IMG/VR virus record: IMGVR_UViG_3300020363_000013
Coordinates: 1 to 30,768 of that record
DNA from: a virus
Lineage: Duplodnaviria > Caudoviricetes
DNA: 30,768 nt
Reading direction: 5' to 3' (one strand)
Part shown: piece after piece, positions 1 through 25,896 of the stretch
Numbering within the stretch: the stretch's first letter is position 1
Layout of the letters: each line of letters starts with the position of its first letter
Position numbers and translations under genes: made by a program
The notes under the pieces: generated by a model
Told to the model about the DNA's origin: nothing
The model's database searches: none
Seen by the model: only the letters and a program-made list of their open reading frames with translations

Positions 1-59
1 AAAAATTTTGAGTTAAATTTTTCTGTGTTAAACTCATACACTTTTTGTGTCTTTGACAT
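1..59 (-). CDS. Hypothetical protein, 5' part only (MSKTQKVYEFNTEKFNSKF...), runs off the window
   Basis: Minus-strand ATG at 59-57 with a GGAGA RBS (plus-strand tctcc 65-69); frame stays open to position 1. Confidence 0.6.
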   Translation of the reverse strand, partial: MSKTQKVYEFNTEKFNSKF

Positions 60-146: not shown

Positions 147-177
147 AAAAAAACCCTACGGTCAAAGACCGTAGGGT
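147..177 (-). terminator. Rho-independent terminator of the 214-aa gene
   Basis: Perfect 11-bp stem accctacggtc (153-163) / gaccgtagggt (167-177), 3-nt loop; A-run 147-153 is a U-tract on the minus strand; lies just past the stop at 190. Confidence 0.85.
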
Positions 178-189
178 CTGAAACTATAG

Positions 190-834
190 TTAAGCTACAG
201 TTTCTGAATGTTGAACATCAACATTTGGATTATCACAACCATTAAGAACAGTCTTGGTATGTGAATCAATGTCTGATGATAAATCACTAGACATCTCATT
301 GTCACCAAAAGGCGTGCGAATTGGTGTATCGTCAATGCTTATCTTGTTAAGCTGTGACTTAGTAAGAGGTTTATACTCTCTTACTTTCGCCTTTTGTATA
401 TTGTTTTTACGCTGATTGTTGCGTAAACTATTAACAATAGAACTGTATGTCTGACGTGATTCTGCTGGTTTCTGTGTAAAGAAACCTAATGCTTCGTCAT
501 ATAACGGTATTTCAGCAATCATTATAGACAATGCTTGTTGAACACCTTTGAGGTTATCATCAGCTCTTTGAAGATTAATATCAGTGCAATCTTCTTCTAA
601 TAATGATTGCTTGAAATCTAAAGCTCTTACTTCTGAACGCTTTAGGTCTTGTATATTAAAGTAATGACCACGAATCATAGAAGTAATAAGTCTTGTAGCT
701 ACTGAATTGCTATAAGCAATTTTATCACTACCAGAAATATAATATCCATTATATTTCCCTTCTTTGTTAATGTCGTTGTCAGTTACAATCAGGTTTAAAA
801 TGTCCTGAATCACTTTATTTTGACTCTTTGTCAT
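190..834 (-). CDS. Hypothetical phage protein (214 aa), first gene of the leftward arm
   Basis: Long ORF, GGAG RBS (plus-strand ctcc 842-845), own terminator; no recognisable motif. Confidence 0.8.
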   Translation of the reverse strand: MTKSQNKVIQDILNLIVTDNDINKEGKYNGYYISGSDKIAYSNSVATRLITSMIRGHYFNIQDLKRSEVRALDFKQSLLEEDCTDINLQRADDNLKGVQQALSIMIAEIPLYDEALGFFTQKPAESRQTYSSIVNSLRNNQRKNNIQKAKVREYKPLTKSQLNKISIDDTPIRTPFGDNEMSSDLSSDIDSHTKTVLNGCDNPNVDVQHSETVA

Positions 835-1123
835 AGTTATACTCCATATAAATGGTTATGCCAAAATCGGCAAAGAGCAGTGTTACATCATGATTCGATG
901 GTAACCAAACAAACCGACTTGCCTTTTTGCAAGTTGGTTTCCTTCGGCTTGTTTGGTGCTAATGCTCGGTTTGCAACGCAAACCATACGCATTGGCCCAA
1001 CGAATCCTGATGTATAAACAGCGTCCGATTTTGGCAGAACGAATACATATGGACTATGACAAAGCAGTCAAAAGGATTCAGGACTTGCCTGATATGAACT
1101 GCCACAACGACATAAACAAAGAA
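760..1123. repeat. Long imperfect inverted repeat / branched hairpin A
   Basis: Nested complementary blocks 760-768/1115-1123, 770-779/1104-1113, 780-784/1097-1101, 788-793/1088-1093, 802-811/1075-1084, 818-825/1066-1073, 826-837/1053-1064, 844-849/1047-1052, 859-870/1025-1036, 884-890/1008-1014, 892-897/1001-1006; two apical arms at 904-957 and 958-996. Confidence 0.9.
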
Positions 1124-1124
1124 A

Positions 1125-1141
1125 AGCGTGTCTAACACGCT
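1125..1141. repeat. Small palindrome between the two long hairpins
   Basis: agcgtgt-cta-acacgct. Confidence 0.75.
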
Positions 1142-1343
1142 ATCATTGTATCTAATACTCAAGTCATCTCCCTTATAAACTATATGCACATTACTATATG
1201 GTCTATAAATAGCAATAAGCCGTGTTGTTCGGCATAGCCGAACTGCCCGCACCCAGACATATTGCTATTTCTATCCTCATATAGTCGAGCCATGTGCATA
1301 TTAACAAGGGAGATTACATATGAGTATTCAAGAAAACAATGAT
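1142..1343. repeat. Long imperfect inverted repeat / rod-like hairpin B
   Basis: Nested blocks 1142-1149/1336-1343, 1154-1161/1321-1328, 1166-1174/1306-1314, 1182-1191/1292-1301, 1193-1200/1278-1285, 1207-1217/1260-1270; apex 1227-1233/1237-1243. Confidence 0.9.
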
Positions 1344-1460
1344 TATTATATTAAACAAACTGAACTTATCGCTACTATGTTTACAGCTGGTATCATAGAT
1401 GTTGATGAATATCATTATCGCATGGCACTCATCTCTGATGAATGTTATAGCGATAGTTGA
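1320..1460 (+). CDS. Small acidic hypothetical protein (46 aa, MSIQENNDYYIKQTELIATMFTAGIIDVDEYHYRMALISDECYSDS); not in the ORF track
   Basis: AAGGGAG RBS at 1306-1312, ATG 1320, TGA 1458-1460. Confidence 0.55.
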   Translation: MSIQENNDYYIKQTELIATMFTAGIIDVDEYHYRMALISDECYSDS

Positions 1461-1499
1461 TAAATCACAGATATATTCATTGCCATGTGGGTAACCCTC

Positions 1500-1529
1500 T
1501 TGACATGATTCGAATCATAGCTGTATAAT
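1500..1529 (+). promoter_or_regulatory. Consensus sigma70-type promoter upstream of terS, with a palindromic operator-like site in the spacer
   Basis: TTGACA 1500-1505, 18-bp spacer, TATAAT 1524-1529; palindrome ATGATTCGAATCAT 1505-1518. Confidence 0.8.
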
Positions 1530-1561
1530 CGGCAGAGCGAACAGTCGTAGAGGTCACTTAC

Positions 1562-1933
1562 ATGGCAAATGATGTCACCACATTAACGGATATGCAGACG
1601 CAATTCGTGGATAACTATTTAACCAACGGAGGTAACGGCAAGAGAGCTTGTATCGACGCTGGTTATAGTGATAAGAATGCATCAGTGCAAGCCAGTAAGT
1701 TATTGAAATTACCACATATTCAACAAGCTCTCATGAAAGGAACTGCTGAACATATTGGGATTGCGTCTGCGAAAGCAATGCAGAAGATGGTTAACCTTTC
1801 TGGCTCAGCTAAGTCAGAGTATGTTCAGCTTGAAGCATCTAAGGATATACTCGACAGAGCTGGATTCAAACCTCCAGAAAGGACACAGCATCTTCTGGAC
1901 GGTGACATCAAAATATCTATTGATTTATCATAA
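1562..1933 (+). CDS. terS: Terminase small subunit (Terminase_2 / SPP1 gp1-like HTH)
   Basis: LTxxQxxFVxxY...ACIDAGYS...ASxQASKLLKxPHI pattern; C-terminal ASKDILDRAG; GAGG RBS; upstream of terL. Confidence 0.9.
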   Translation: MANDVTTLTDMQTQFVDNYLTNGGNGKRACIDAGYSDKNASVQASKLLKLPHIQQALMKGTAEHIGIASAKAMQKMVNLSGSAKSEYVQLEASKDILDRAGFKPPERTQHLLDGDIKISIDLS

Positions 1934-7702: not shown

Positions 7703-7783
7703 GTTAACTGCCCAAAGGTAAATGACCAACCCTATTCGGATAATTGGTATCAGACTCTAGGATAACAGGAGGTTTTTATTAAC
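7703..7783 (+). ncRNA. Putative cis-regulatory structured leader of the major capsid gene
   Basis: Two nested CCC...GG-ATAA modules closed by CTG/CAG (7708-7710/7766-7768) and ACCAA/TTGGT (7725-7729/7744-7748). Confidence 0.55.
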
Positions 7784-7805
7784 TCTAACTTAAAGGAGAG
7801 TATTT

Positions 7806-8627
7806 ATGGCACTATCCATAGATCAAGCGTTTATAACGCAGTTCGAGAGTGAAGTCCACCTTGCTTATCAAAGAGCTGGTGCTAAGCTCAAAAACACAAC
7901 TCGCCAAGTCAATAATGTAACTGGTAACACTGCACGATTCCAAAAAATCGGTAAAGGTGAAGCCGTTACTAAATCAAGACACGCTGAAGTTACTAGCATG
8001 GACCTTACTCACACTAATGTCGATGTGACTTTAAATGACTTTTATGCTGCTGATTACATTGACACACTAGACCTACTCAAGACAAATATTGATGAAAGAC
8101 AAGTAGTTGCTACTAATGCTGCAAATGCACTAGGTAGAAAAACTGATGACCTTATCATATCTGCTCTTGACGCTGGTAATGGCACAACAATCGCAGCAGC
8201 TTCATCTGGTCTTACAAAAGCTAAAGTATTAGAAGCATTTGTAAACATGAATGAAAACGACATCCCTGATGACGGACAAAGATACTTTGTCGTATCACCA
8301 GAAGGATGGGCTGACTTGTTAGCTATCGATGAATTTGTTAACACAGATTACATCGCACCTGGCGATCAACCTTTCACTAGCGGTATGACTGCAAAAAGAT
8401 GGTTAGGCTTTAACTTTATGATTCATTCAGCATTACCTATTTCTGGTAATGATAGAAAAGTTTTTGCTTACCACAAATCTGCAATCGGTACTGCTACAGG
8501 ATCGGATGTGAGAACTGAAGTTAATTACATTCCAGAAAAAGTTAGTAACCTTGTAACATCATATATGTCTATGGGATCAATCGCTGTTGATTCAACAGGC
8601 ATTATTGAAGTCACGATAGTAGAATAG
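7806..8627 (+). CDS. Major capsid protein
   Basis: 273 aa; AFITQFESEVHLAYQ start, ALGRKTDD, IPDDGQRYFVVSP and WLGFNF motifs; strong AAGGAG RBS; follows scaffold. Confidence 0.92.
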   Translation: MALSIDQAFITQFESEVHLAYQRAGAKLKNTTRQVNNVTGNTARFQKIGKGEAVTKSRHAEVTSMDLTHTNVDVTLNDFYAADYIDTLDLLKTNIDERQVVATNAANALGRKTDDLIISALDAGNGTTIAAASSGLTKAKVLEAFVNMNENDIPDDGQRYFVVSPEGWADLLAIDEFVNTDYIAPGDQPFTSGMTAKRWLGFNFMIHSALPISGNDRKVFAYHKSAIGTATGSDVRTEVNYIPEKVSNLVTSYMSMGSIAVDSTGIIEVTIVE

Positions 8628-8636
8628 GAGTAGAAC

Positions 8637-8882
8637 ATGGCTTTAACATCAAGTGAATTGAAAAAAGTCGGTGGTGCTTCACCAGCTATTTGGTATTACA
8701 AATCAGCTGATGCCGTAGGCACTATATCTGGCTCTGGTTACTTCAACTCAGTTACTAACAATTTGAAACAATTTGATATTATTCTTGTTGTTTCTGCTAC
8801 TGGAGGTACTGCTGCTGTTGATGTCTTAACTGTATCATCAACAACTGGCAATGCAACTGTAACAACAACTGCGTTAGCATAA
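8637..8882 (+). CDS. Small virion protein, possible capsid decoration (81 aa)
   Basis: Directly after capsid with AGGAG RBS; Ser/Thr/Gly/Ala-rich; WYYKSAD...SGYFN motif. Confidence 0.7.
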   Translation: MALTSSELKKVGGASPAIWYYKSADAVGTISGSGYFNSVTNNLKQFDIILVVSATGGTAAVDVLTVSSTTGNATVTTTALA

Positions 8883-8892
8883 CCATAAAGGA

Positions 8893-8921
8893 TAGGGGAG
8901 TTAGCGATTGCGACTCCCCTA
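8893..8921 (+). terminator. Stem-loop after capsid genes (terminator or stabilising hairpin)
   Basis: taggggagt (8893-8901) / actccccta (8913-8921); no clear U-tract. Confidence 0.5.
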
Positions 8922-8930
8922 GAATTATAA

Positions 8931-9557
8931 ATGACAACAACAACATCGACTGCATCAGGCAGTGACATAGACATAGCTTCAAGAGGATTAGTGTTGATCG
9001 GTGCTACGCCGATTTCTTCTTTTTCTGGAACAACAACTGAATCCCAAGTAGCACAAAATCTGTACGAAGATATAGTTAGATCAGCTTTGACACAGACACG
9101 CTGGAGATTTGCCAGTAACATAAAACAATTATCAAGATTAACAGACGCACCTTTAGACGAAAATAGATATGATGCTGCTTACCAAATACCTATTGAATCT
9201 ATTATGATTCATGGTGTTACTGTAGGTGGTAACCCAATACAATATGAAATATTTACAGACAAATTATTTTGCAATGCTGGTGTAAGTGATAAAGTAATAG
9301 CTGAATACACATACAGACCAGATACTACTACATTCCCACCATACTTTATTACAGCTTTACAGTTTCATTTAGCATCTGTATTTGCTGGTGCTATTGCAGA
9401 AGATGCAGATAAGTCTGCATTGTTTGAGCAAAAAGCACAAAGACAATATTTGTTAGCAAGAAATGTAGATGCACAACAAACATCAACAGAAAGATTAAAT
9501 ATGGGTAGGTATGCTAACTTTAGAGGTAACACACGGACACTTGCTAGGAGATTCTAA
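8931..9557 (+). CDS. Tail tubular protein A / adaptor (T7 gp11-like)
   Basis: IASRGLVLIGA.PI, WRFA and FPPYFITAL..LA motifs; size and synteny. Confidence 0.85.
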   Translation: MTTTTSTASGSDIDIASRGLVLIGATPISSFSGTTTESQVAQNLYEDIVRSALTQTRWRFASNIKQLSRLTDAPLDENRYDAAYQIPIESIMIHGVTVGGNPIQYEIFTDKLFCNAGVSDKVIAEYTYRPDTTTFPPYFITALQFHLASVFAGAIAEDADKSALFEQKAQRQYLLARNVDAQQTSTERLNMGRYANFRGNTRTLARRF

Positions 9558-18521: not shown

Positions 18522-20747
18522 ATGGCGATAAGTGTATCAGATACAACACCAAGAGTAGACTATACTGTTGGCTCTACAGCACAACAAACATTTTCAGTAC
18601 CTTTTGCTACCGAACAAGCTACTGATATTAAAGTATTTGTTAATGATGTAGAAGCTACATATGTATCGTCTTTAGTAGGACAAACAGGAACTAAGTTTAC
18701 ATTAAACAATGTAGGTACAGCTAATAGTACTGAGGTACAATTTGCTACTGCACAAAGTAATGTCACTATTGACATTATACGAGATACTGCCATATCAAGA
18801 ACAAGTGACTTTAACACAGGTGGGTTTTTTGACATTGAAGATTTAAATGTTGAGTTATCAAGAGTCACAAGAAACTTACAAGATTTGGAGTTAAAAGTTG
18901 ACCAAGCTATTTCAGCACCAGTGCAAGAAGGTACGCCAGGCAATCTTCCTACTGCGACTTCAAGGGCTGGGAAGCTATTGGCTTTTGACTCATCTGGTAA
19001 TGTCACCACTAAAACAAGTGCTATTACTGAGTATCTTGGAGCTTATCCGTCTGATTTAACTAACAGGCCAGATGGTACAGCTCTACAAGTTGGTGACTTA
19101 TACTATAATACAACAGCGTTAGAAACACGCATATGGACTGGTACAGCATGGGATTTGGTATTTGGTAGGGTACAACCTATATCAACAACATACACATCTT
19201 CTGGTCAAACTACATTAACTCTTACTGCAAGACCAAGTAGTGTATTATCTATATTAGTTATTATAGATGGTGTATTACAAAATGTTGCTAATTACACATT
19301 GTCAGACAATGTAATAACATTTACTACAGCACCTCCTGTTGGTGCATCTATTGAAATTAGAGATTTTTCTTCAACAGTATCGTCTGGATCAGGTACTATT
19401 ATTGATTTATCTGGTACAGAAGTAACACAAGCTAATATAGATTTAGATAAATTACTTACTGATATTGCATCTGCAACTAACAGAATAGATACATCACAAT
19501 TATCTACATCACTACAAAATCAAATAAGCAACATTAACACTGTAGATGGAAGAGTATTAATTTTAGAAAATATTATTACTCAAAATGGTGTGCAAGTAAT
19601 TGGTGATCAAGGAACTAAAATTACAGCATTAGAAACATTAACATCATCCTTAGATAATACTGTTAATGGTTCTGCATCTACATCATTAACATCAAGAGTC
19701 GCTGCTTTAGAAGCATTACAAGTACAAGGTTCTGGTAGCATTACTTTAGATTTAAATAGAATTACTAATCTTGAATCACAAGTATTTGAATCAGATGGAA
19801 CTACAAGAAGATTAGCTACACTTAATGAGCATAACTCACTTAATGCTACTGTAAGTACATTAAATGGTACTACAACATCACACGCTACAAGATTAACTAA
19901 TTTAGAATCTATTGTTACTGGTGGTACTGGAACAAGTGTATTAGCAACTATATCACAATTAAATGCTGTAAGTACAACTGCTGCATCTGCAAATTCTACA
20001 GCTCAAGCTCAAGCAGCAACAGTTACACAATTAAGCTCAACTGTAGGTAACAATACAACAGCTATTAGTACTAATACTTCTACTATAAATGGAATACAAG
20101 GTAAGTATGCTGTTAAAATTTCTAGCAATGGGTATGTTAGTGGTTTTGGTTTAATATCTTCTGCTAATGAATTATCTGGAAGCACTACAGCATTTGGTGT
20201 TAATGCTGATAGATTTTGGATAGCTGATAGAACTAACGCAAATCATACACCTACTATAGCTTTTGAAGTTAATAATGGAGTTACTAATATTCGTGACGCT
20301 GTTATTGATTCTTTACAAGCTAATAAAATTAGAGGTGATGTAAACAAAACTAAAGTAGTAGAAACATCATCATCTTCTGCTTTAACAAACTCATATGTAT
20401 TAAAACTTACTTGTGATTTACCAGCACCAGATAATACAGGATCAACATCAGAAGGTCATGCTCCAATAGCTATGGCTAGTTTATATTTTAGTAGCTCATC
20501 TGATGGTATACATGGAAAGTTAACTGCTTGTACTTTAACAGGAAGTACAGAAGGTACTGAGTATGTTATACACGATATATATGAAGATTACTTTGTGTCT
20601 AATATGCACTTAAACTCTGGATTGCCTACACAAATATCTGCAACTGGTAAAACAACAAGTCAAATTAGATTTAAACTATATGCTAAACATGATGGTACTG
20701 CTTGTAATTTAACAAAAGCTAACATCATTGCCTGGGGATTAAGATAA
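18522..20747 (+). CDS. Tail fibre protein (T7 gp17-like N-terminal anchor, coiled-coil shaft, DUF1983-like segment)
   Basis: PRVDYT..FSVPF..DIKVFVN..LNVELSR N-terminus; RITNLE/RVAALE heptads; KYAVKI..GYVSGFGL..FGVNADRFWI. Confidence 0.85.
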   Translation: MAISVSDTTPRVDYTVGSTAQQTFSVPFATEQATDIKVFVNDVEATYVSSLVGQTGTKFTLNNVGTANSTEVQFATAQSNVTIDIIRDTAISRTSDFNTGGFFDIEDLNVELSRVTRNLQDLELKVDQAISAPVQEGTPGNLPTATSRAGKLLAFDSSGNVTTKTSAITEYLGAYPSDLTNRPDGTALQVGDLYYNTTALETRIWTGTAWDLVFGRVQPISTTYTSSGQTTLTLTARPSSVLSILVIIDGVLQNVANYTLSDNVITFTTAPPVGASIEIRDFSSTVSSGSGTIIDLSGTEVTQANIDLDKLLTDIASATNRIDTSQLSTSLQNQISNINTVDGRVLILENIITQNGVQVIGDQGTKITALETLTSSLDNTVNGSASTSLTSRVAALEALQVQGSGSITLDLNRITNLESQVFESDGTTRRLATLNEHNSLNATVSTLNGTTTSHATRLTNLESIVTGGTGTSVLATISQLNAVSTTAASANSTAQAQAATVTQLSSTVGNNTTAISTNTSTINGIQGKYAVKISSNGYVSGFGLISSANELSGSTTAFGVNADRFWIADRTNANHTPTIAFEVNNGVTNIRDAVIDSLQANKIRGDVNKTKVVETSSSSALTNSYVLKLTCDLPAPDNTGSTSEGHAPIAMASLYFSSSSDGIHGKLTACTLTGSTEGTEYVIHDIYEDYFVSNMHLNSGLPTQISATGKTTSQIRFKLYAKHDGTACNLTKANIIAWGLR

Positions 20748-24200: not shown

Positions 24201-25896
24201 AACAAGTTTATGGAGAAAGCCTGGTCCTACTGGTGTAAAACAATTTACAGCATATGAAAATATTACAGCTGGTGACGCTGTTGGTATTACAAATGATGGT
24301 AAAATTGCTAAAGCTAGAAACTTTATTACAGCTAATATATCTATAACAACTGATTCATCTTTAGCATATGATAATAGTAATGATGATAAAATACATGATG
24401 GTGTTGGTGGTTCTGAAATTCATTACAATGCTGAATATGACAAGTACATTGTGTTTTATCCATCTAACGGAACATCTAAAATTAATTATAAAGTAGGTAT
24501 TAAATCTGGAACAGGAATAACATGGGGTAGTTACAATACACTATACTCATCTAATACTGGTGGGTTTTCAATAGCAGAAGGTAAGCATCCAGATGGTACT
24601 GGTCATTGGTTGCTTGTTGTTACTACTACTAATTCAACTTATAAATATCAAACTTATACATTTGATGGTTCAACATTTACAGCTCAAGGTAGTTCTGTAA
24701 CTATGTCAGGAACATACTTTAGAAATATTTCAGGTAATAGATTCGGCATTGATGTTCAATGGGAAAACGCATCAATAACTTCTAATAGTGTAACAAGATT
24801 TGGACAATGGATAATGATAGGAAGTGGTGCTGGACAGTGGTATGAAAACAGTTACACAGCTTATGCTGCTTTTTATCACGGTAGTGGTTCTGATAAAACT
24901 GCTAGTCAATTAGGTAGATCAGAACAACAAATGAATAGTGGTGCTTCTTATGGTTACCCAGATAAAGGTTATTTTCAATTAGTTAAACATCCAACAGAAC
25001 GTGAATTTTATTTAGCTCATATGAGAAACGGTTATACAAATCATGGTGGTCTTACAAAAATATATGGCACAGGTACTGCAGCTGGTTGGAGTGCTACTTC
25101 TTTCCAAAATGTAAGTAATAATAGTGGTCATCAAAATATGGGTGGTAGTAATATTGGTTTAAGTTTGCATCCATCAAATACAGTTGGAAGCAGATTAGGT
25201 TTAGCAGTTATATACAGGCCAGACAGCTCTGGAACTATGAGATATTTTACATTTGATATGAAACAAGGAACTACAAATACACCTACTGATAGTGAAGCAT
25301 TATCATTATATAGTGGAGGTAGCGTTTCTTTTGGTCAAGGTAATATGTGTAAAGTAATAAATGACTTTGATAGTGGTAAATATATATTAATGATTGGTTA
25401 CAACTCTGGTTCAGATCATAAGGTTTACTATCATTATGTAACAGATACTACTTCAACTACAAATAACAATGCAAATACCCCACAAGTAACTGGTACATTT
25501 GTAGACACAAACAATATAGCAATTAACAGTGCATCATCTTCTGGAGTAATGCCTTTTAGAAAAGCTGGTGATGCAAGTCAATGGATAGTTTTTAATACTG
25601 GCGTAAGCTCCCCTCAAAATACTGGTAACGGTAAACCAACATCATGGTTTATTGGGCCAGAAGCACAAAATGCTTTTACAAATTTTGTTGGAATAACAAC
25701 TGAATCAGCTACAGCAAACAATACAGCTTTAGTTAAAGTAGCTGGTAGTACTGCTAGTGATTTAAGTGGTTTAACACCAGCAAAATTAGCAGTAATAGAT
25801 TCAACTACAGGCAATATACTTTCTGTTAATAGTGTAGGAACAAACCAAAAACAAATTGGTGTTACACTTTCTGCAACAGAAATACAATTAACATAG
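21208..25896 (+). CDS. Large collagen-repeat fibre/appendage protein (1562 aa)
   Basis: Three Gly-X-Y blocks, [14 protein letters not shown] motif, [12 protein letters not shown] beta-sandwich-like domain, long Gly/Ser/Thr/Tyr-rich beta regions. Confidence 0.85.
21397..21978 (+). repeat. Collagen-like (Gly-X-Y)n coding repeats in three blocks
   Basis: 9-bp periodic GGN-NNN-NNN blocks at about 21397-21507, 21616-21750 and 21853-21978. Confidence 0.9.

Follow-up and report, generated by a model that had tools for sequence, protein, structure and literature searches.

The 30,768-base window analysed here is one whole virus record (IMG/VR IMGVR_UViG_3300020363_000013) from a tailed phage of podovirus type with annotated terminase, portal, capsid and tail genes. 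Its subject of interest is the region between an early gene on the minus strand and terS, the gene for the terminase small subunit, on the plus strand. This region contains two long imperfect hairpins, A and B, in each of which one arm (the mirror or copy arm) is an inverted copy of the ribosome-binding site (RBS) and first codons of the adjacent gene. The hairpins are real and conserved, A-type hairpins occur family-wide, and known phage regulation leaves them unexplained. The features of the locus are as follows:

190..834, minus strand: first early gene, 214 aa, of no known family, with 5 homologs
760..1123: hairpin A, with a gene arm (codons 1-25, RBS at 842-845, leader), a non-coding mirror arm at about 997-1123 and a branched apex at about 884-1014
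859..872: small alternative hairpin just 5' of the first-gene RBS; a similar hairpin of 5-9 bp lies here in many relatives
1125..1141, minus strand: hinge palindrome of 17 bp, terminator-like, not conserved
1142..1343, minus strand (template of the 46-aa open reading frame): hairpin B, an accessory module whose right arm contains the RBS and codons 1-8 of that frame
1220-1227 with 1243-1253, minus strand: conserved two-strand apex motif, found in these loci on the covered gene's template strand
1320..1460, plus strand: accessory open reading frame (ORF) of 46 aa, which contains the weak fold C (1363-1458)
1562..1933, plus strand: terminase small subunit (terS), phrog_51, E 1.6e-15

The stretch 740-1570 folded to -320 kcal/mol, the mean of shuffled sequences being -185, which corresponds to z scores of -21 on the plus and -16.5 on the minus strand and lies far beyond chance. 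The z scores of the single elements (plus/minus) were -16.0/-14.5 for A, -8.8/-9.6 for B, -4.2/-3.6 for the hinge and -2.2/-2.9 for C, and DNA parameters gave similar values. A previous sequence-only reading of this DNA had described consecutive long hairpins over nearly all of 760-1460; this holds for A and B, whereas C is weak and unconserved (z +0.9 to -4.0 in five relatives), as is the hinge as regards conservation. The arms were correctly placed in that reading, A covering the RBS and first ~25 codons of the leftward gene and B those of the 46-aa ORF up to codon 8, whereas the helices, given as 5-12 bp, ranged from 1 to 12 bp in DNA-parameter folds. The long imperfect inverted repeat is unique within the window (scores 122 and 73; next 42, median 24). 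The locus was also claimed to be the only point of divergence, and it is so among ORFs of at least 60 aa with a Shine-Dalgarno sequence, the one exception being an antisense ORF of 69 aa within a tail gene. The proposed mirror symmetry about the hinge, on the other hand, is a feature of the strain and not of the system, as the palindrome was present in 3 of 14 relatives tested, all three near-identical to the window. The small hairpin at 859..872 proved strand-neutral in its equivalents, the sense strand being better in 18 and the template strand in 15 of 39 clusters.

An assembly artefact or chimera was rejected, since positions 1-2100, with this arrangement, are matched at 95-99% identity by three further contigs, and the layout recurs in a cultured isolate. 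Hairpin B and its ORF are found in most close relatives and in L006/L007 (terS 74%), are absent from L100 and are replaced in L101. In relatives, the non-coding DNA that separates A from B is variable, highly folded and strand-neutral and measures 250-620 nt (L002 3218-3460, L003 3275-3490, L006 2900-3525, L007 3049-3464, L101 2381-2899).

The two arms of the hairpins have co-evolved. Among seven close relatives, in which the first 75 coding bases are 29-44% identical to the window-like gene, the mirror arm reached scores of 53-90 with its own gene, compared with 14-32 for the genes of the others; five B arms behaved in the same way, if less sharply (own 32-42, others 12-34). Each copy arm thus matches its own gene start and not the starts of relatives, in agreement with the suspected selection for fold-back. 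A functionless mirror arm, left as a by-product of template switching at a quasi-palindrome, would also explain an arm that is rewritten when the gene start changes, and with it the diagonal own-gene matrix. Template switching, however, predicts long perfect tracts, whereas the longest matched run was 23 nt and most were <10 nt; it predicts strand-symmetric decay, whereas the mismatches described below are strand-biased beyond base skew; and the position of the repeat is fixed in 4/4 genomes, with a conserved apex motif. A functionless arm is therefore highly implausible, but template switching may be how the mirror arm is renewed.

The spread of the hairpins was surveyed starting from 202 loci with a terS relative. 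Non-identical loci with 900 or more upstream bases numbered 124, and a divergent ORF of at least 90 aa with an RBS was present in 118. A locus was called positive when an upstream inverted copy of the RBS and start scored >6 above the best of 20 shuffles; some loci entered via motif scans, so the frequencies are not unbiased. A mirror arm, and thus an A-type hairpin, was present at 76 of the 118 loci, among them that of Hodr (below), and the same targets scored 13-34 against downstream DNA. By sequence cluster, 22 of 39 were majority-positive and 24 had a positive member. The stems reach 25-75 codons into the first gene across the family, and arm pairing is highest over the RBS (0.85 at -15 to -6). 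When four whole genomes were scanned, the long repeat was unique in all of them and always at the early/terS junction (scores 102-252 versus at most 41 elsewhere). The strongest example was seen in Pelagibacter phage EXVC031P Hodr, the closest cultured record to the window (terL 67.5%, capsid 62.4%, terS 46.7%), where a hairpin of 600 nt and 238 bp covers about 70 codons and runs into terS. The more distant phages MEP301, SI2 and Vibrio 448O51-1 and the Baldr stretch displayed no long repeat. HTVC010P (L504 34223-34892 + 1-280) and HTVC034P (L507) have their top repeat score at the same early/late junction, weaker and AT-rich (81 and 66), and were not counted. In mirror-less clusters (L008 3335-3796, L028, L033, L173), the stretch from the first gene to terS still forms large branched folds, but these leave the RBS uncovered.

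The mismatches in the stems were used to determine which strand folds. With G-U pairs off, so that the strands were treated alike, single mismatches on the mRNA strand were A.C 109 versus G.T 11. Energy-free alignments of the arms gave, on the template (plus) strand, G.T 180 versus A.C 27 (20 versus 1 of 24 clusters), G.G 52 versus C.C 11, T.T 90 versus A.A 33, and G.A 111 versus C.T 80, and the ratios of mismatches to their mirror class, normalised per base, were 7.1, 5.4, 4.3, 2.1, 2.0 and 1.3. Per site, A.C (1.7%) and C.A (2.6%) were below most transversion mismatches despite being transitions; the intergenic composition has only a mild skew (G 0.25, C 0.20, T 0.27, A 0.27). After correction by shuffling, the template strand folded better in 22/24 clusters, and clusters without a mirror arm showed a bias in the same direction but weaker (G.T 29 versus A.C 15). 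Hairpin A thus favours the plus strand in the wider family and neither strand in the window clade. Hairpin B is biased to the minus strand, the template of its own covered gene: its energy was lower on minus than on plus in 8/8 loci with RNA and DNA parameters alike, and its unique mismatches on plus were A.C 14 versus G.T 1.

These results bear on one of the roles offered by the sequence-only reading, namely 5' mRNA leaders that lock translation until processed, in the manner of type I toxin mRNAs or RNase III leaders. The coverage of RBS and start, with pairing maximal over the RBS, is what such a lock would need; the window clade's A folds equally well on the mRNA strand, and hairpin D, described below, resembles a lock of this kind. 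A lock at the mRNA level would, however, accumulate G.U on the mRNA, yet this is the rarest mismatch class in the stems (A.C on plus 27 versus 180), which argues against it. Furthermore, hairpin B folds worse on its mRNA strand in 8/8 loci, the fitted effect of mRNA-strand stability is negative (below), and no leftward promoter signal was found beyond the mirror arm. The lock is contradicted at the family level, the window clade's A being neutral, and we consider it decidedly improbable for A and B.

DNA and RNA folds were compared by a likelihood fit, with nearest-neighbour energies, to the choice among the three possible mismatches at 440 sites. DNA energies on the template strand fitted best (negative log-likelihood 446.3); RNA energies on the template gave 466.9 and needed an unrealistic deficit of transitions, and RNA energies on the mRNA gave 453.7 only with a negative coefficient. 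With free base-skew terms added, the DNA/template fit still gained 22 log units and the RNA/template fit <1. In cluster bootstraps, DNA/template beat RNA/template in 60/60 and RNA/mRNA in 57/60. The mismatch spectrum was controlled with plasmid stretches only, i.e. eight related copies from upstream of IncF leading-region genes, deemed by their position before ssb to be like Frpo (after PMC9849209). Six of the eight formed similar stems, with G.T 13, T.T 5, G.A 4, G.G 3 and no isolated A.C. The template-biased mismatches and the better fit of DNA energies together argue against an mRNA lock and for a single-stranded-DNA element.

A further possibility is a structured RNA antisense to the first gene (on the terS-sense strand), with its anti-RBS part folded onto a decoy copy. 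The strand would be right for it, and G.U, G.G and U.U are tolerated in RNA helices; 15/44 pairs of hairpin B have two-sided changes on the minus strand; and circularly permuted motifs, such as those at the apex, are a typical trait of RNA modules. Once base skew is modelled, however, RNA energies on that strand add nothing, RNA-type loops (GNRA/UUCG) were not enriched across clusters, and no signal of an antisense promoter was seen within the first gene (7.9 versus 8.1 shuffled). A search of Rfam 15 returned no match at gathering score in the window, and positions 1-2100 with six relatives gave sub-threshold noise only. The structured non-coding RNA proposed earlier as a second role thus gained no Rfam support and fits the energies worse than DNA does, and an antisense RNA is in our opinion quite improbable. 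Resemblances to ribozymes, HK022 put and C4 were considered and dropped, again with no support in Rfam.

The two-strand apex motif occurs in the family in two circular permutations, and apex motifs are swapped freely between clades. A C-GN(N)A-G ending of its variable arm was detected on the template strand by script in 10 of 19 variants and by eye in a further 4; the five variants of the window clade lack this ending. The sequence GCGAAGC was found on the plus strand in 13/39 clusters (3.4 expected). C-GN(N)A-G mini-hairpins are far more stable in DNA than in RNA and occur in the G4 origin, ssiA and N4 promoters (PMC13037366). Loose two-part motif scans were rejected, as the extended motif was present in 2 of 240 matches, which is chance; a stricter scan gave 66 loci, 21 with a terS relative nearby and the remainder mostly unstructured. 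The motif with complementary flanks also occurs at L422, L471, L482 and L483, with no terS relative within 1.5 kb.

Part of the stretch was contained in 5 of the 13 RNA runs listed, in all cases as contigs, four of the runs being from one study. The contigs reach 809, 855, 853 and 782 in the first gene, one spans 1324-1456, and the terS promoter is bridged by two; 856-1323 is left uncovered by all of them. Since such contigs carry no strand or start and hairpins hinder library making, they were not used as evidence. Elsewhere in the window, the contigs of three RNA runs start at 7717, 7730 and 7813 (region 7717-8000), near the start of the capsid gene, which hints at a separate capsid promoter, although contigs cannot show starts.

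Our preferred interpretation, tentative and held at a little under even confidence, is that the hairpins are Frpo-like single-stranded-DNA promoters for the first-expressed genes, folding on the template strand of the gene. It builds on the observed architecture and co-evolution, the family-wide template-strand bias of the mismatches and their better fit to DNA energies; that an ArdC-type gene follows the first gene in the window clade and in Hodr was also taken to support it. On the entering strand, Frpo adopts a fold to which host RNA polymerase is recruited, and second-strand synthesis turns it off (PMC9849209, PMC11541004, 10.64898/2026.01.09.698686). In the phages, the region would be single-stranded for a time early in infection, through entry of one strand or resection of a genome end near terS. 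Host RNA polymerase would initiate close to the apex, within the folded stem and some 45 nt ahead of the start codon. The mirror arm would then replace the missing non-template strand, re-pair behind the polymerase and peel the RBS and first 25-75 codons off the template, allowing ribosomes to load; such peeling would explain why exactly the gene start is mirrored. N4 virion RNA polymerase on single-stranded templates leaves RNA:DNA hybrids (PMC4496689). Second-strand synthesis would turn the promoter off, and B would act likewise for the accessory rightward ORF on the other strand. If the genome end is on the terS side, the single strand could arise by 5'-to-3' resection, these phages encoding a YqaJ/RecE-type exonuclease and SSB, a protein that binds single-stranded DNA, or by one-strand import as for RcGTA. 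Import in the case of RcGTA needs ComEC/ComF (PMC12378983), and the literature searched gave no paper on ComEC in Pelagibacter.

Several observations weigh against the Frpo-like interpretation. Neither arm was enriched in sigma70 boxes, -10-like hexamers, the profile of the phages' own terS promoter or a -10 bubble, although this test is weak, as the plasmid controls too score only 6-7/12. The best promoter matches had seemed to cluster at -74 to -89, and this failed on retest (copy arm 4.3/17 versus 3.6 expected). No excess of contig ends marks a terminus here, upstream and downstream ends being equally frequent. The phages have T7-like internal virion proteins and are not known to enter as a single strand. 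Hairpin A of the window clade itself has few mismatches without strand bias (G.T 9 versus A.C 7), and RNA energies favour its minus strand in 4/8 loci; sites are related by descent, so that p-values are optimistic; and 42 of the 118 loci have no mirror arm. The loop of the window motif is C-TAT-G and that of Hodr C-TTCG-G (missed by the pattern), neither of DNA type, and C-GNA-G triloops are enriched alike on both strands (7.4 and 8.0 versus 1.7 and 1.3). Finally, of 62 loci with enough DNA, only 15 have ArdC close to the first gene. Of the third group of roles in the sequence-only reading (single-stranded-DNA or cruciform structures acting as promoter, origin or packaging signal), the single-stranded-DNA structure fits best, whereas neither promoter boxes nor a terminus signal was found. 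The broader proposition appears doubtful: that widespread tailed double-stranded-DNA marine phages, including a cultured SAR11 phage, have their leading end delivered as or converted to single-stranded DNA and use a folded-template promoter to express their first genes, its mirror arm detaching the start of the nascent mRNA from the template, i.e. that a podovirus uses a plasmid-style zygotic-induction switch.

The DNA-versus-RNA and strand evidence applies equally to a single-stranded-DNA hairpin that serves as a replication or packaging signal (an ssi/sso-type priming site, or a terminase or origin structure) and covers the gene start merely through genome compactness. Such a signal would suit a position that adjoins terS and, in 23/39 clusters, a G-run pair past the terS promoter, and Frpo transcripts also prime second-strand synthesis (10.64898/2026.01.09.698686). 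The GC skew switches sign near the early/terS junction in 4/4 whole genomes, but it tracks gene direction and so says little. What this explanation leaves unaccounted for is that in the window clade both divergent starts are mirrored, each on its own template strand, and that pairing peaks over the RBS; the free exchange of apex motifs between clades and the lack of a contig-end excess also speak against it. A replication or packaging signal is accordingly unlikely in our view.

A further hairpin, D, was overlooked in the earlier reading and lies at the start of terS:

1480..1568, plus strand: hairpin D, in which the RBS and start of terS are paired with an anti-RBS arm 5' of its promoter; z -6.7
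1500..1529, plus strand: sigma70-type promoter of terS, TTGACA-18-TATAAT, a 12/12 match, inside D

TTGAC is found upstream of terS in 39/39 clusters. Compensatory changes were observed in D (TTGCCAT/TAGCCAT versus ATGGCA/ATGGCT), but it was significant in only 4/39 clusters and its strand bias was weak. RBS-masking hairpins with a promoter inside are known from T4 e, soc, 49 and I-TevI and from fold-back inhibition in IS10. D shares their anatomy, with the anti-RBS arm 5' of the promoter and the RBS 3', and fits that class, whereas A and B greatly exceed them in length and show a bias towards the non-mRNA strand. D is thus likely to be a separate, conventional lock at the RNA level that silences terS in read-through RNA. 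The idea that D acts as a lock only where B exists was ruled out, since D persists in L100 and L101. The promoter spacer (1506-1517) contains the palindrome TGATTCGAATCA with two GANTC sites, which we take to resemble the CcrM/GcrA motif of Alphaproteobacteria; L008/L009 and close relatives retain CGAATCA. The G-run pair (G5+ N2-9 G5+) lies directly 3' of the terS promoter where present (e.g. L134 941-959), is absent there in the window, and could be an R-loop/G-quadruplex origin or packaging signal. In the window clade, a C/G-run (1938-1948) lies just past the terS stop.

The rest of the window is arranged with terS, terL, portal, capsid, tail and internal virion genes on the plus strand and SSB, a DnaA-like helix-turn-helix protein and further early genes on the minus strand. 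Complete relatives are ~37 kb, so part of the early region is missing from the window, which opens within an ArdC homolog. Two features lie beyond the first gene:

1..59, minus strand: start of the second early gene (ArdC-type anti-restriction/single-stranded-DNA-binding protein), cut by the window edge; reads MSKTQKVYEFNTEKF
151..179, minus strand: intrinsic-terminator-like hairpin 3' of the first early gene

The L001 ORF corresponding to window 1..59 matched ArdcN (E 7.8e-08) and MPTase-PolyVal (E 6.7e-34). Between the first gene and ArdC (55-253), short strong hairpins are clustered together with the terminator (z -5 in the window, -22 in L001); relatives have a small gene or longer hairpins inserted at the equivalent position. 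Four further 200-nt windows (8201-8400, 8801-9000, 18801-19000 and 25601-25800) fold with z near or below -5, and probably contain terminators or local structure.

The first-gene protein has no PHROG or Pfam family and no Atlas match, and the proteins of two relatives matched nothing among plasmid or phage records. It has 290 relatives, all without a name. First-gene proteins are highly divergent (mean column identity 13%). The AlphaFold model of the protein at this position in L020, a distant relative, is a long helical hairpin (pLDDT 89), for which Foldseek found nothing at E<=0.001 and only generic helical hairpins such as Rop and UvsY (PDB E>0.06, BFVD E>=0.004). A host search in genomes gave five matches, all to contigs of metagenome-assembled genomes of mixed taxa, and was uninformative. 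The locus tags of L179 (OQ414635.1) and L505 (OQ414636.1) are swapped, the Hodr record having Baldr tags and vice versa.

The known single-strand promoters come from conjugative plasmids, the DNA of which enters as one strand. If the Frpo-like interpretation is true, tailed double-stranded-DNA phages would have an unrecognised single-stranded stage at infection, and since Hodr, a cultured Pelagibacter phage, carries the strongest example (about 240 bp), the question is directly testable. The mismatch-spectrum test is a means of separating DNA folds from RNA folds by sequence only. In the published literature searched (mostly open papers, as listings and abstract openings), such hairpins or Frpo-like promoters were not described in tailed phages, and the passages searched in PMC10504331 and PMC11288001 mention neither Hodr nor hairpins.

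Type I toxin mRNAs and RNase III-processed leaders likewise have the RBS covered by long pairing, but in the phage hairpins G.U is the rarest mismatch on the mRNA strand, and no cognate antitoxin RNA or toxin family was found. The hairpin promoters of the N4 virion RNA polymerase share with them a template-strand DNA hairpin for the earliest transcription and C-GNA-G loops, but consist of perfect stems of 5-7 bp served by a 3500-aa virion enzyme (PMC4496689), whereas the phage stems are 80-250 bp with bulges. No RNA polymerase is annotated among 37 window ORFs or 19 ORFs of the Hodr early region, so the virion-encapsidated polymerase that characterises N4-type promoters was not found there. 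RSF1010 ssiA and G4-type origins are also single-stranded-DNA hairpins with GAA mini-loop caps, but they are short primase sites (PMC13037366) and no primase is annotated in the phage. The closest likeness is to Frpo/ssi (ssp) of the F and ColIb-P9 leading regions, which has a long bulged stem upstream of early genes, including anti-restriction functions (PMC9849209, PMC11541004, 10.64898/2026.01.09.698686). Shared with it are the template-strand fold (for the family and B, the window clade's A being neutral) and the mismatch spectrum of the IncF controls; the likeness is one of architecture and mismatches. Frpo/ssi differs in belonging to a conjugative leading region, whereas these hairpins occur in a tailed double-stranded-DNA phage without known single-strand transfer. 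The phage stems extend 25-75 codons into the gene, whereas 5/6 plasmid controls end 45-58 nt before the start; the phage apex is branched and swappable, there are one or two hairpins per genome, and -35/-10 boxes are putative only. The phage hairpins would thus work like Frpo without being a member of that class, as they lack a conjugative context and their boxes are unproven.
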